A stretch of 64,000 nt of DNA from positions 1 to 64,000 of the IMG/VR virus record IMGVR_UViG_3300030329_004520; one strand, given 5' to 3'. This stretch comes from a virus. The notes under the pieces are model-generated. The model saw nothing but the letters and a program-made list of their open reading frames with translations. It was not told where the DNA came from and did not search any database. Shown here in pieces: positions 1-12,051 of the stretch. The position numbers and the translations under genes were made by a program. The first letter of the stretch is position 1; every line of letters starts with the position of its first letter.

Positions 1-4
1 AAAA

Positions 5-382
5 ATGAAATTAAGTAGAGATATGTTAAAGGGTAGTGTTAGAGTGTTCTATGTTATACTATCAGTACTATTCATAAGGTTATTCGTAGTATATAGTATT
101 CCGTGGTGGGAGATAATAATACCTTCTTTGATATTAATAGGTATAATCAATATGTTACGAGTGTATAGTCTTACTGATGGTATGTTACATCAGATGTTAA
201 GAGAGAAGTTAGGTGACTTAAAGGACTTCGGTAATAAGCTCAATAAGACTTATCTGGAATATGAATATGATATGAAACTAGACGACGCAGACCCAATTAC
301 CGACAAAGTGTTGAATCATACACACAAGAAAAGTAATAAACGGTATAAAGTCAAGAAAAAGAGAACTAGAAGAAAGAACTAG
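5..382 (+). CDS. hypothetical membrane protein
   Basis: 125-aa ORF with two hydrophobic N-terminal segments and a basic tail. Confidence 0.6.
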   Translation: MKLSRDMLKGSVRVFYVILSVLFIRLFVVYSIPWWEIIIPSLILIGIINMLRVYSLTDGMLHQMLREKLGDLKDFGNKLNKTYLEYEYDMKLDDADPITDKVLNHTHKKSNKRYKVKKKRTRRKN

Positions 383-497
383 TTAATGATATACTATGGA
401 TAAAGTTATGATGAATATAGTGTTTGTAATGAAGAGAATTATATAGTGTGTATACATATCGAAAAAACAAGTTTTTTCTCAGAAAAAAATGTACACC

Positions 498-563
498 TGT
501 TACAATTTGTTACAAATAATGTGTAGAAAAACCTTGACTCATATGCGGTTTTATTCGTATATT
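498..563 (+). promoter_or_regulatory. TGTTACA-N3-TGTTACA box 1 plus sigma70-type promoter
   Basis: Box 498-514; TTGACT at 534, 18-nt spacer, TATATT; box-to--35 gap 19 nt. Confidence 0.7.
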
Positions 564-593
564 GTAGTGTAAAAATAAAAGATGTACGAGCTG

Positions 594-649
594 TGTTACA
601 ATTTGTTACAAATAAAAGCTTGTTTCATATAGTAAAAGTGTCGTATATT
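594..649 (+). promoter_or_regulatory. box 2 plus promoter upstream of the structured non-coding region
   Basis: Box 594-610; 9-nt gap; TTGTTT at 620, 18-nt spacer, TATATT 644-649. Confidence 0.7.
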
Positions 650-675
650 ATAGTATAAGATTTAGATTTTTGAAA

Positions 676-1056
676 TATTTCCTGGCCGGAATAGGGATTC
701 AGTATGAAAGTGACTGAATAATAGCTTCCTAAAAAGGTTATAAGGTGTCCGAGTAAGGCCTGTAGTGGGCGATACGAGAGTCAATCTGACGGAGTATCCT
801 AGGCGTAACTGCCTTCGAAAGGAACTTGGTAGAACAAAAAAGATACTTGGTATTTTTTAGCTACTAATGAGAGTAAACCAAAATCTCTCCCACACCAGAA
901 GAATCCCAAAAAATTAGAAATGAGAGAGGTGCTCATACTTGTAAGTAGTATTTATACTACCTCTACCAGTCCCTCAGCACTCTCTCCTCACATATTAAAA
1001 TAGGTTACAGACGGTGTACACCATGGCCCTTAGTTTTACTCCTTTCTCTGAGGGCC
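676..1056 (+). ncRNA. candidate structured non-coding RNA(s)
   Basis: No ORF in the track, GC above background, many stems (GGGATTC 694/GAATCCC 901; GATAC/GTATC; TTGGTAG/CTACTAA; GAGAGAGGTGCT/AGCACTCTCTC; GGCCCTTAG/CTGAGGGCC). Confidence 0.55.
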
Positions 1057-1064
1057 TAAAAACT

Positions 1065-1119
1065 TGTTACAAATTGTTACAATTCTTTTCTTGTTTCCTA
1101 CCTCAAATGTTCGTATATT
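1065..1119 (+). promoter_or_regulatory. box 3 plus promoter of the AAA+ ATPase
   Basis: Box 1065-1081; 9-nt gap; TTGTTT-N17-TATATT. Confidence 0.75.
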
Positions 1120-1154
1120 ATATTGTAAGTTAAATGATAAAAAAGGAGTTATAT

Positions 1155-2345
1155 ATGTCAAAACAAAATTCACCGGAAATCTTAGTTCAAGTCGAGAAAT
1201 CAGGTAATCGTTACAATGCGTATGATACTGATGGAATTAAGAGGACTTCTGAGATTTCTACAACTACTAGGAAACGAGCTTATGAGAATGATTCTTATAT
1301 AGGTAAGTTCCCTACTGCTACTGGTCGTCACTATTGGAGACTAGTTCCTAAATCTGCTGTTGATGTAGATTCTACAAATTCGGCGTCTAACGAAGAAATT
1401 TCGTCAGTTGATATACCTACTGAGCATGCCGAAGTTCTTAATTTTATTCACTCTTCTTACTCACTTAAGCCTAAGGCTTTGATGATGTCAGAACTTAAAT
1501 GGAAATATCTTGTTCGTTCTGCTGTTAGGGGTAAGAATATTATGATGACTGGTCCTGCTGGTTGTGGTAAAACAATGGCTGCCAAGTGTGCTGTTAATGC
1601 GTTGGATAGACCAGACTTTTATTTTAACTTGGGTGCTACTCAAGACCCAAGAGCTACTCTTATTGGTAATACTCACTTCTCTCAAGAAGACGGTACTTAC
1701 TTCTCAGAGTCAGCATTCGTTAAAGCGATTCAAACACCAAACGCTGTGATACTATTAGATGAGTTATCTAGGGCTCACCCAGACGCTTGGAACATCTTAA
1801 TGACGGTATTAGACTATGGTCAGAGATATCTTAGATTAGATGAACAAGATGGTCAGAAAACTATTAATGTGGCTGAGGGTGTAACATTCATAGCAACGGC
1901 TAACATCGGTAATGAGTACACTAGTACTAGAGTGATGGACAAAGCTTTAATGGATAGGTTTACTATTGTAGAGATGGATGTACTATCAGAGGAAGACGAA
2001 AACTCCTTACTTACATATATGTTTCCTAATGTTGATAGTACGGTAATAAGTAATGTAGCTAAGATAGCGACTCTAACGAGAACAGAGTCTAATAGTGAGA
2101 CAGCGAGAATAACTAGTGGGATATCTACTAGAACAACGGTTGAACTATGTGGACTACTATATGACGGGTTCTCTCTAGAAGAGGGTGCTGAAGTTACTAT
2201 CTATCCTCAATTCGATTCTACGGGAGGTGTAGATTCTGAAAGAACCTTTGTTAAACAGATTGTTCAAAAATTCTGTGACGATGGTTCATCTGATGAGTTG
2301 TTCAACGAGGACGAGATGGCTGAGGCGGAAGAGGATAGTTACTAA
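1155..2345 (+). CDS. MoxR/CbbQ/CobS-like AAA+ ATPase
   Basis: Walker A GPAGCGKT, Walker B ILLDE, ATAN, DKALMDRF Arg finger; start placed at 1155 after AAAGGAGT (ORF open from 1134). Confidence 0.9.
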   Translation: MSKQNSPEILVQVEKSGNRYNAYDTDGIKRTSEISTTTRKRAYENDSYIGKFPTATGRHYWRLVPKSAVDVDSTNSASNEEISSVDIPTEHAEVLNFIHSSYSLKPKALMMSELKWKYLVRSAVRGKNIMMTGPAGCGKTMAAKCAVNALDRPDFYFNLGATQDPRATLIGNTHFSQEDGTYFSESAFVKAIQTPNAVILLDELSRAHPDAWNILMTVLDYGQRYLRLDEQDGQKTINVAEGVTFIATANIGNEYTSTRVMDKALMDRFTIVEMDVLSEEDENSLLTYMFPNVDSTVISNVAKIATLTRTESNSETARITSGISTRTTVELCGLLYDGFSLEEGAEVTIYPQFDSTGGVDSERTFVKQIVQKFCDDGSSDELFNEDEMAEAEEDSY

Positions 2346-2353
2346 AAAGTGTA

Positions 2354-2373
2354 AGAGGGGCTTCGGCCCCTCT
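2354..2373 (+). terminator. GC-rich cUUCGg hairpin after the ATPase (terminator or stability element)
   Basis: AGAGGGGC-TTCG-GCCCCTCT; no immediate U-tract. Confidence 0.5.
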
Positions 2374-2486
2374 GCAACTTGAAAAGGTTAATCGCATAAG
2401 GCACGGACACTAGCTTCCGTCCTCTGAGTGATAAACATTTCGAGGCAAATTTTTTTACTATATAAATTAATAAACACTAATAGAAT

Positions 2487-2771
2487 ATGAATTATACTGA
2501 TAATACTAAAGGTTTTAGACGAAGAAATGTCCTAGTCAAGTTAGAACACCTATTACAAGATATCCTCTATAAAATAGAGTATATTGAAGATGTAATACAA
2601 TATGAGAAAAGTTACATGCCTGATGAGGAATACTTTGAATGGACTCTTGATTTGGAAGAATGGCAAAACTACTATTCACGAGTAAGGACTATGTATTGTC
2701 TTATGTCTCGTGGTAGTCGTCTTAGTAGAGTTGATTTAAAAGATTGTAATGATATAAGGAAGATGTTATAA
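2487..2771 (+). CDS. hypothetical protein
   Basis: 94-aa ORF, co-oriented with neighbours. Confidence 0.6.
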   Translation: MNYTDNTKGFRRRNVLVKLEHLLQDILYKIEYIEDVIQYEKSYMPDEEYFEWTLDLEEWQNYYSRVRTMYCLMSRGSRLSRVDLKDCNDIRKML

Positions 2772-2774
2772 TGT

Positions 2775-2829
2775 TGTTACATATTGTTACAATTTACTTA
2801 TTGACTAGTTCCTATATATGTCGTATATT
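2775..2829 (+). promoter_or_regulatory. box 4 plus promoter
   Basis: Box 2775-2791; 9-nt gap; TTGACT-N17-TATATT. Confidence 0.75.
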
Positions 2830-2864
2830 ATAATAGTAATTTTAATTAATAAAGGAGTTTATTT

Positions 2865-2975
2865 ATGTTAGGTTCAATTTTAGTTTTATTTATGTTATGT
2901 TTTGTTGTGAGTTTCAGTATAGGTACTATACTAGCTCATTTGACTTGGAGTCCACCAATAACGGAGGTTAAATAA
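2865..2975 (+). CDS. small membrane peptide (36 aa, not in ORF track)
   Basis: AAAGGAGT RBS; MLGSILVLFMLCFVVSFSIGTILAHLTWSPPITEVK. Confidence 0.6.
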   Translation: MLGSILVLFMLCFVVSFSIGTILAHLTWSPPITEVK

Positions 2976-2976
2976 T

Positions 2977-3135
2977 ATGTTACACGCTGTATGTATAACT
3001 ATCTTCTTAACTATCGTATTCGGTGTTCCGTTTTTCGTTTCTTTCTTCTTAGGAGTCTGTGTGTATATCAATCAACAGAACAAGAAGAATTGTAAGAGAT
3101 ATTGTAATCATTTAAATAATTGTCACAAATATTAA
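2977..3135 (+). CDS. small membrane peptide with Cys/His tail (52 aa, not in ORF track)
   Basis: GGAGG RBS; MLHAVCITIFLTIVFGVPFFVSFFLGVCVYINQQNKKNCKRYCNHLNNCHKY. Confidence 0.6.
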   Translation: MLHAVCITIFLTIVFGVPFFVSFFLGVCVYINQQNKKNCKRYCNHLNNCHKY

Positions 3136-3147
3136 AGGAGTTTTTTT

Positions 3148-3537
3148 ATGGGATATTATAATAGTAATCAAGGAATAGATTTTTCACGACTAGATATTAA
3201 CAAGACTCGTCAGAGTTTACAGAATGGTGGTAGTATAGTATATAAAGATTCATACTACAATCCAGGTAAGAAGGTTTATGTTAAATCTAAGTCACGACAG
3301 GTTGTCACATCTGAAATGCGTTCTGTTATTGTAGAATGTATTAAGGATAAAGTTGATAACTTTGATATAGTACTATCACGACTAGAATCATCAGGACTTG
3401 ATTCAGTTAAAGAATCTTATTGGGATATGGCTCTTCGAGCCTTTAGTTATCTTGATATTAATTCAGAGAGTGATGTAGATAATTGGATTAAGAGTCCTAA
3501 AGATATAAAGTCATATATGACAAAGGAGTGTGTGTAA
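3148..3537 (+). CDS. hypothetical protein
   Basis: 129 aa, AAAGGAGT RBS. Confidence 0.7.
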   Translation: MGYYNSNQGIDFSRLDINKTRQSLQNGGSIVYKDSYYNPGKKVYVKSKSRQVVTSEMRSVIVECIKDKVDNFDIVLSRLESSGLDSVKESYWDMALRAFSYLDINSESDVDNWIKSPKDIKSYMTKECV

Positions 3538-3758
3538 TGATAGAGAAAGCTAATGAATTTTTACAAGACAACGACATTATGGTTCGTATAGGTTCTATCT
3601 GGTATTGTCTAGATGAAATTGGACCTATTGGACATAATGAGTTTCCAATAATAGTTTCAGATGACGATGGTGGTGAACATCAATTTGATATGGCAGACAT
3701 AGATGAGTTTGACCCATCATTTGAATTAATGGATTTAAATCATATGGGGGTAGCGTAA
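3537..3758 (+). CDS. small acidic hypothetical protein
   Basis: AAGGAG RBS, TAATG coupling with upstream gene (ORF open from 3528). Confidence 0.6.
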   Translation: MIEKANEFLQDNDIMVRIGSIWYCLDEIGPIGHNEFPIIVSDDDGGEHQFDMADIDEFDPSFELMDLNHMGVA

Positions 3759-3898
3759 TGTTAGAGACAATTATAGTATGGGGTTTTATTATAGGTTTTA
3801 TTATGTTAGCTGCTTATGTTGTAGCTGATGATAGTTATGATAGTAAGGCTCATCGAGATTTACAAGAAACAATTTTAAATAGAAATGAGGATATATAA
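3758..3898 (+). CDS. small membrane peptide (46 aa, not in ORF track)
   Basis: TAATG-coupled; MLETIIVWGFIIGFIMLAAYVVADD... Confidence 0.55.
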   Translation: MLETIIVWGFIIGFIMLAAYVVADDSYDSKAHRDLQETILNRNEDI

Positions 3899-4008
3899 TG
3901 GTAGATGCAATTGTATGGTTCGGATGGACTGCGATAATATTTATAGGATTACTTGTACTAGTTAGTATGGTAGGATTACCAAAAAAAGGAGAACAAGATA
4001 ATGATTAA
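3898..4008 (+). CDS. small membrane peptide (36 aa, not in ORF track)
   Basis: TAATG-coupled, GAGG RBS; MVDAIVWFGWTAIIFIGLLVLVSMVGLPKK... Confidence 0.55.
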   Translation: MVDAIVWFGWTAIIFIGLLVLVSMVGLPKKGEQDND

Positions 4009-11073: not shown

Positions 11074-11098
11074 ATAGTATATTAAAGGAGTAAAAATT

Positions 11099-12016: not shown

Positions 12017-12051
12017 AGTATATGATTGAAAGAAAAGAAAAAAGGAGTTTT

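Follow-up and report, generated by a model that had tools for sequence, protein, structure and literature searches.

A short, G+C-clamped hairpin beside an AAA-ATPase gene of an uncultured marine phage is probably an anti-Shine–Dalgarno (anti-SD) element that closes a manA-like non-coding RNA (ncRNA) and would control translation of the ATPase and of similar early genes; we put the probability of this reading at roughly 0.55. The hairpin occupies positions 1025-1056 on the + strand of the 64,000-nucleotide (nt) stretch of IMG/VR record IMGVR_UViG_3300030329_004520 that we analysed (hereafter, the window), the opening 64 kb of an 82.5-kb virus contig, 31.7% G+C. CheckV estimates completeness at about 46% for this contig and at 95% for a 169-kb relative, and the sequencing runs that contain window DNA are marine metagenomes. 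Selection acts on the stem of the + strand hairpin and, more strongly, on the sequence of its loop; the hairpin is linked to the ATPase gene, and the complementarity of the loop to the ribosome-binding region of that gene is lineage-specific. From these patterns we infer the pairing itself, its repressive effect and its action in cis or in trans. The elements first needed are as follows.

1025-1056, + strand: GC-clamped hairpin, with a 9-bp stem (1025-1033 with 1048-1056) and a 14-nt open loop (1034-1047).
1038-1045, + strand: anti-SD core ACTCCTTT within the hairpin loop, read from the sequence; the core is conserved among relatives.
1155-2345, + strand: AAA-ATPase gene of AAA_5/MoxR type, PHROG 249 'porphyrin biosynthesis', CobS-like; linked to the hairpin in all relatives.

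The 9-bp stem and 14-nt loop described in an earlier, sequence-only reading of the window are borne out by the letters: the 5′ arm is GGCCCTTAG (1025-1033), the loop TTTTACTCCTTTCT (1034-1047) and the 3′ arm CTGAGGGCC (1048-1056). Six of the nine pairs are G–C, a G+C-rich stem as in intrinsic terminators, and one is a T·G (U·G) wobble on the + strand, the minus-strand equivalent of which is a C·A mismatch. Folding is significant on the + strand (−15.7 kcal/mol, z = −3.2, with 1 of 200 shuffles equally good) and not on the minus strand (−11.3 kcal/mol, z = −0.5, 49 of 200). When 657-1062 is folded as a whole, the hairpin is present with an unpaired loop in both the minimum-free-energy and the centroid structures. 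GC-rich hairpins are scarce in this DNA, a hairpin scan of the 82.5-kb contig finding eight on the + strand. Neither general family nor tRNA searches account for it: no Rfam family reaches its gathering score in the window, the sole Rfam match across the hairpin at E ≤ 10 over 400-1200 is a chance PK-BYV, and a tRNA/tmRNA search of the window found none.

Relatives preserve both the stem and the loop. Searching with the ATPase protein retrieved 80 related IMG/VR loci (61–78% identity). A DNA similarity search with 400-1200 matched nothing among 50,697 phage records, and a search with the ATPase protein reached 50.6% identity at most, which leaves the window without an annotated close relative. 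In 20 related loci searched with Rfam, nothing but tRNAs reached gathering score. In the closest loci (L001, L003, L004, L005, L012 and L014), a hairpin stands at the equivalent place directly upstream of the ATPase promoter box, which in the window begins ten bases past the hairpin; these hairpins have differing stems and the loop TTTWACTCCTTT, with a T-run after the hairpin in L001, L003, L004 and L005. With a covariance model (CM) built from five equal-length hairpins, 41 of 81 sources yielded a total of 47 matches at E ≤ 1, each lying on the strand of the ATPase gene; the window hairpin scored 48.5 bits.

In alignment A3, 96.4% of cells are paired against 57.8% after shuffling, double changes occur in nine of nine pairs, 0 of 500 shuffles reach the covariation score, and sliding the partner by one to three columns leaves pairing at only 42–57%; A3 was fitted to the model and is thereby biased towards the structure, and the raw sequences show an equal pattern. 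G·U pairs are tolerated on the + strand only. The loop is the best-conserved part: across 35 hairpins T12, C18, T20 and T21 are invariant (MAFFT alignment A1, which sets the stems out of register and served for loop conservation only), and the core reads A/U-C/U-UCCUUU. The ATPase strand of the 80 loci has 161 GC-rich hairpins, of which 19 carry CTCCT in the loop and one carries AGGAG. Checked in homologous loci, then, the loop is conserved and the stem covaries, and the + orientation that had been proposed agrees with the better + fold and with the strand of every CM match.

These same changes bear on a coding explanation, to which we give almost no credence and which we rejected. A mechanical listing does contain open reading frames (ORFs) at 1014-1133 (+, 39 amino acids) and 1036-1173 (−), and the minus-strand AGGAG, which might serve a minus-strand ORF as its ribosome-binding site (RBS), is followed 14 nt on by an ATG. 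However, this sole downstream minus-strand ATG opens a frame of nine codons, both listed ORFs cross the ATPase promoter, and the relatives preserve pairing through double changes in stems that differ between them, not the reading frame, with G·U tolerated on + only. A real minus-strand ORF was looked for, and none was found there.

The hairpin belongs to one gene. When G000, at 82.5 kb, and eight contigs of 67–169 kb were scanned with CMs, eight of the 11 listed matches flanked the ATPase gene, and the other three were weak (E = 0.06 in G005; E = 0.8 and 6.8 in G000). Scans of G002 and G008 gave no match, although G002 has a known copy, whose interrupted stem escapes the models. Model R1 misses interrupted stems or very long loops (L001, L004, L030 and L044), and its zero matches in G002 and G003 are misses, not absences; R2 recovered G003, not G002. 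The hairpin lies either before the ATPase promoter, as in the window clade, or directly after the ATPase stop codon, the commonest position being 10–50 nt past it, and 21 distinct hairpins lie within 60 nt of that stop. Copies flank the gene on both sides in L003, L005 and L007, tandem pairs occur in L007, L009/L010 and L011, and in L009/L010 the hairpin stands downstream of a tRNA gene instead of the manA-like RNA. The sequence-only reading had placed the hairpin in a regulon defined by a promoter box; that link gives way, since across relatives the conserved link is to the AAA-ATPase alone, with the hairpin on either flank and mostly within the 3′ untranslated region (UTR).

Such positions are also those of an ordinary terminator or 3′-end stabiliser, with the loop kept for an RNA-binding protein (S1 or Hfq) or by descent and the SD complementarity a by-product of constrained low-complexity motifs. 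We consider this explanation unlikely, although it has real support: a T-run directly follows the stem in many relatives (for example, L003, L005, L007, L011, L026-29, L030 and L075), the ends of transcription units are occupied (after the manA-like RNA, the tRNA of L009/L010 and the ATPase ORF), and tree-corrected covariation is not significant. Yet loops of 10–22 nt are long for intrinsic terminators, and a terminator scan of 1-4000, which takes loops of 3–8 nt where this one has 14, returned three terminator-like sites without the hairpin at 1025-1056. In G000 and the eight contigs the type is restricted to the flanks of one gene, the three weak matches apart, and other hairpins of the window phage, including terminator-like ones, carry unrelated loops (2354-2373, TTCG; 19276); because of this linkage and these unrelated loops, the type is not the generic terminator of the phage. 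Complementarity between a loop and the RBSs of other loci is already 7.5 nt, as a by-product might give, whereas lineage-specific extensions of 11–15 nt past the SD core match the loop's own RBS.

That last contrast comes from 28 distinct primary hairpins near the gene, each loop being compared with the 25 nt before the start of its own ATPase gene. The longest run of exact complementarity averages 8.86 nt at the own site and 7.46 nt at other loci, and duplex energies average −9.97 and −8.19 kcal/mol, respectively; 0 of 20,000 permutations reach either difference, in tests that ignore the relatedness of the loci. Anchoring on the GGA core, which avoids poly-A/poly-U artefacts, gives 8.68 versus 7.33 nt (0 of 20,000), and 8.93 versus 7.78 nt with G·U allowed (1 of 20,000). 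The longest matches are those of L044 (15 nt), L030 (13 nt), L026, L037, L001 and L004 (12 nt each) and L020 (11 nt); a single spacer base distinguishes L030 from L044, and their loops differ at the base that matches it. In 16 of the 28 cases, no complement on that strand of the hairpin's own 4–7-kb locus is longer than the one at the ATPase site, which also ranks first or second in three 20-kb regions. The ATPase tree shows a joint change of SD core and loop at its deepest split (GGAG/CUCC versus GGAA/UUCC), L026 has gone back to G–C, and GGG/CCC arises separately in L033 and in L039+L018.

In the window the loop matches more than one gene. The core ACTCCTTT has a single + strand copy, at 1038-1045, and its complement AAAGGAGT has seven (1142, 2851, 3134, 3522, 11084, 12041 and 36591), six of them inside the first 12.1 kb; both strands together hold eight where 3.25 are expected, a number reached by 1 of 100 shuffles. 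Five of these copies had been singled out as RBSs from the sequence, and each is indeed followed by an ATG 3–6 nt further on.

1142-1149, + strand: RBS AAAGGAGT of the AAA-ATPase gene, an 8-nt loop complement 5 nt before the ATG at 1155; predicted duplex −10.0 kcal/mol.
2851-2858, + strand: RBS AAAGGAGT of the gene that opens the box-2776 unit, an 8-nt complement.
3134-3141, + strand: RBS AAAGGAGT of the gene at 3148-3537, 8-nt complement.
11084-11095, + strand: RBS region of the HAD/PNKP-phosphatase gene (ATG 11099), 12-nt complement AAAGGAGTAAAA.
12041-12048, + strand: RBS AAAGGAGT of the 690-amino-acid gene of the box-11963 unit, 8-nt complement.

The 12-nt match at 11084 is the best in the contig (−14.1 kcal/mol, rank 1 of 89). 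The two RBS classes seen earlier also hold up, with + strand AGGAGT sites before 13.5 kb and nearly all AGGAGA sites beyond 14 kb (exceptions at 3987 and 7461). In a crude survey of 89 genes, in which, as elsewhere in the analysis, gene starts were called by simple rules, eight of the ten best loop:RBS duplexes fall within the first 13.5 kb, and the mean duplex is −7.6 kcal/mol for early and −6.0 kcal/mol for later genes (Mann–Whitney p = 0.015); a generic 16S tail motif as control gives p = 0.13. The claim that the loop complements early-gene RBSs extends to two relatives. In G002, the loop UUUAACUCCUUUU is one base off that of the window (UUUAAC versus UUUUAC), and complements of 11–12 nt to this loop stand at three box-driven genes (the ATPase, the homologue of gene 11099 and a 706-amino-acid gene), the loop and the three RBSs having shifted together; in G006, three start regions have in common a tag, AGGAAATAAAA, that the loop mirrors. 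The window, G002 and G006 thus fit the proposal of an early RBS class that the loop matches; the conserved genomic link, however, is to the ATPase gene.

The CUCCUUU of the loop is near the usual 16S rRNA 3′ tail, and the hairpin might in principle be a global decoy that mimics this tail, soaks up host SD sequences and shuts off host translation. We regard this as very improbable: the loops vary in step with the RBS variants of their own phages (GGAG, GGAA and GGG), which a fixed host target would not need, and there are only one or two copies per genome. In phage T4, RegB cleaves GGAG/U within early RBSs (PMC3014915).

Upstream, the hairpin closes a longer transcript, and the free-standing small RNA of the sequence-only reading becomes instead the 3′ end of a manA-like structured RNA of about 400 nt. 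Two boxed sigma-70-like promoters (499 and 595) precede about 400 nt without a credible ORF, and the start of the ncRNA would lie at about 657, judging by a −10 element at 644-649.

499-515, + strand: box of the first promoter of the ncRNA unit, from a box search.
595-611, + strand: box of the second promoter of the ncRNA unit, from the same search.
657-1024, + strand: body of the ncRNA that ends in the hairpin, with a manA-like domain (687-896) and a covarying 'domain 2' (about 918-992).
1066-1082, + strand: ATPase promoter box, downstream of the hairpin and upstream of the ATPase RBS; the promoter has a −35 element at 1091-1096 and a −10 element at 1114-1119.

The manA RNA model (Rfam RF01745) matches over its full length at 687-896 with 38.4 bits (E = 2.8e-8), short of the 55.2 bits set as its gathering score; the hairpin is outside this model and starts 129 nt past its end. 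Sub-threshold manA matches also occur in L011 (49.6 bits), L004 and L001. In domain 2, a long stem varies on both sides, being GAGAGAGGTGCT/AGCACTCTCTC in some relatives and GAGAGAAACCTG/CAGGTTCTCTC in others (alignment A4), and the motifs CAGTCCCTC and TCTCTCCTCA are invariant, the pair being present in 10 of the 80 related loci. Its single-stranded tail, CUCCUCAC, is itself anti-SD-like and complements the AGGAGA class; we take it to resemble the conserved motif of cyanobacterial Yfr1. Three metatranscriptome runs contain small shares of 400-2500, and RNA-library contigs from these and a fourth run span some of 731-999 and some of the ATPase ORF, a 162-nt contig being identical across 740-901; such contigs give neither strand nor ends, and DNA carry-over is possible.

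Boxes stand at 499, 595, 1066, 2776, 11020 and 11963, a search giving seven matches, including the reverse reading of the 1066 box, where 0.18 are expected. The box regulon (TGTTACA-N3-TGTTACA) is also found in G002 (L161+L162), G001 (L163+L164) and G007 (L165), with five to eight boxes per stretch of 20–35 kb, and its conserved box-driven homologues are the ATPase, the HAD/PNKP phosphatase and a protein of about 700 amino acids without a Pfam match. Between the upstream hairpin and the ATPase gene, L007 (2195-2980), L011 (2628-2980) and L002 (2387-2980) carry promoter-like elements and short non-coding units, some of which begin GATGAGAGAGA, and therefore a small-RNA gene array appears to lie upstream of the ATPase gene in these loci. 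In the window, a GC hairpin with a UUCG tetraloop directly follows the ATPase stop (2354-2373), the usual place of the anti-SD hairpin in relatives; it has no U-tract 3′ of it on the + strand, and the tract ACAACTTGAAAAG past it, kept in L003 and L005, may be a −35 element.

Several observations weigh against an anti-SD role directed at the ATPase. The window match to this gene (8 nt) equals those at 2851, 3134 and 12041 and is below that at 11084 (12 nt), so specificity for the ATPase is not apparent within the window, and across lineages the ATPase site is not the best match of its own locus for 12 of the 28 hairpins. Read on the tree, about four concordant co-changes stand against one discordant (L009, a C·A clash) and three that are wobble-compatible only (L022, L050 and the downstream copy of L007), and a loop A faces an RBS A in L015, L019, L043 and L048. 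A sister-pair test at two loop/RBS positions finds about two to four independent pairs, at which a sign test is powerless, and tree-corrected support for co-change is weak. Both partners are low-complexity, A-rich or U-rich, which inflates matches. No such hairpin was found in L024, L046, L059 or L071. TAAAAAC directly follows position 1056, with no U-tract there, and the window hairpin may thus not end an RNA. The RNA-library contigs cover none of 1039-1464, although this is uninformative on the hairpin either way. Because of the discordant loci, the few independent pairs and permutations that ignore relatedness, we grade the loop–RBS pairing as probable and not as established.

Nor is the loop's partner unique: in the downstream-position group the 45 nt past the hairpin also show own-locus complementarity (7.0 versus 6.37 nt; 55 of 20,000 permutations reach this), a further point on the same side. 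In a rival explanation, acting only in cis, read-through RNA from upstream promoters would close the RBS while RNA from the gene's own promoter, lacking the anti-SD, would be translated. The window has the order that this demands, with the anti-SD at 1038-1045, the promoter at 1066-1119 and the RBS at 1142, and read-through is likely where no U-tract follows the hairpin. Complementary AGAAAGG-type tracts often stand about 10 nt past the stem in downstream-position relatives, and T4 offers a precedent in genes e, soc, 49 and I-TevI, for which PMC3014915 describes RBSs masked in transcripts from upstream promoters. We nevertheless find masking in cis alone quite improbable. In the downstream-position group, the upstream ATPase RBS is matched over 9.0 nt and the following 45 nt over 7.0 nt, and strong U-tracts in most upstream-position relatives should halt read-through. 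A fold of 1015-1175 (z = −1.6) pairs the RBS (1141-1150) with a U/C tract at 1083-1093 and not with the loop, although loop–RBS pseudoknots are beyond the program.

The U/C tract at 1083-1093 overlaps the −35 region of the ATPase promoter and is a possible second mask in long transcripts. AGAAAGG-type tracts about 10 nt past the stem occur in nine loci besides L058, in which a 13-nt perfect loop complement lies 6 nt past the stem and would form an H-type pseudoknot (L058:4170-4227). A pseudoknot between the loop and a tract directly past the hairpin has some support in relatives and no partner in the window; we rejected it as a general explanation and keep it only as part of masking in cis.

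For the anti-SD element that we favour, events would run as follows. The boxed promoters at 499 and 595 would produce the manA-like ncRNA of about 400 nt, closed by the hairpin, whose strong GC stem would stabilise the 3′ end of the RNA; an additional role as intrinsic terminator would apply to most relatives but not to the window. The 14-nt single-stranded loop would pair with the SD and spacer of the adjacent ATPase mRNA, and likewise with other early mRNAs bearing a AAAGGAGT-type site, hindering 30S binding so that early translation is damped or timed. In the window this would be action in trans from the 3′ end of the ncRNA. Where relatives carry the hairpin in the 3′ UTR, the loop's partner would be the 5′ UTR of the ATPase mRNA, on the same molecule or on another copy; alternatively, the hairpin would work as a stable 3′ fragment.

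A wider version is possible but doubtful: an RNA-only timer of early translation, in which each phage of this large uncultured marine group would have a private RBS tag and a nuclease-resistant hairpin, with the tag mirrored in its loop, at the end of an ncRNA or of the ATPase mRNA. Accumulating 3′ fragments would titrate the tagged RBSs and stop early synthesis, with tag and loop co-evolving in each lineage. In T4, the proteins RegB and RegA do a comparable job of early shut-off.

The nearest mechanism among known systems is 3′UTR–5′UTR pairing in the icaR mRNA of Staphylococcus aureus, in which UCCCC, a 3′-UTR motif, base-pairs with that mRNA's own SD and blocks initiation (PMC3868564, PMC7821165). 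As in icaR, a pyrimidine anti-RBS motif lies outside the coding region, in most relatives in the 3′ UTR of the gene that it complements, and the complement is to that gene's own SD region (over 8 nt in the window and as many as 15 nt in relatives). Unlike in icaR, the phage motif sits in the loop of a GC-clamped hairpin that is often a terminator, and in the window it stands before the ATPase promoter, where a different RNA ends, not in the 3′ UTR of the same mRNA; the icaR system also includes a block of the initiation complex and RNase III cleavage.

The nearest anatomy is that of the cuckoo/alpha-r14 (CcsR) small RNAs of Alphaproteobacteria, which are described as having variable covarying stems and a constant anti-SD-like loop motif, some members being processed from 3′ UTRs (PMC4615179, PMC8034643). 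The phage hairpin shares the variable covarying stems and the conserved anti-SD-like loop, but it fails the defining features of the family as given there. The family loop motif is CCUCCUCCC (PMC4615179), whereas the phage motif is ACUCCUUUCU or AUUCCUUUCU and the window loop has UUUUACUCCUUUCU; the phages carry one hairpin (two in L007, L009/L010 and L011) in place of two to four adjacent ones; and the context is a phage, with no Rfam match. The T4 genes e, soc, 49 and I-TevI (PMC3014915) are like the ATPase in having a complement of the RBS upstream of the gene's proximal promoter, here 1038-1045 before 1066-1119 and 1142. They are unlike it in that the T4 RBS lies in a simple local helix, whereas the phage complement is in a hairpin loop 86 nt off and, in relatives, mostly downstream of the gene.

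manA RNAs are reported from marine metagenomes and T4-like cyanophages, where they occur in 5′ UTRs (PMC2864571). The RNA closed by the hairpin is like them in its manA-like domain (687-896) and unlike them in its sub-gathering score and in the hairpin beyond the model. These RNAs are a candidate riboswitch class, for which two papers, of 2010 and 2023 (PMC2864571 and PMC9964418, respectively), give no established function. A full-text search on phage anti-SD elements, with most subscription journals outside it, returned no paper on a conserved, gene-linked anti-SD hairpin.

Staphylococcus aureus RNAIII has C-rich hairpin loops, including that of its terminator hairpin, that pair with target SDs. 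The phage element would resemble it in using a 3′-terminal hairpin loop as an anti-SD seed, and differs in organism, in motif (UCCC in RNAIII) and in the RNA itself.

The hairpin reveals what the 3′ end of one manA-like RNA contains. Its practical value is modest, as improved annotation of phage intergenic regions and as a compact part for translational control. Anti-SD RNAs and 3′UTR–5′UTR pairing are known from few bacterial cases, to which a gene-linked phage hairpin would add. If our reading is true, the natural loop and RBS variants would amount to a ready series of compensatory mutations, a large group of uncultured marine phages would regulate an auxiliary CobS/MoxR-like AAA-ATPase by a short RNA–RNA contact, and an early gene class would probably be under the same RNA–RNA control.

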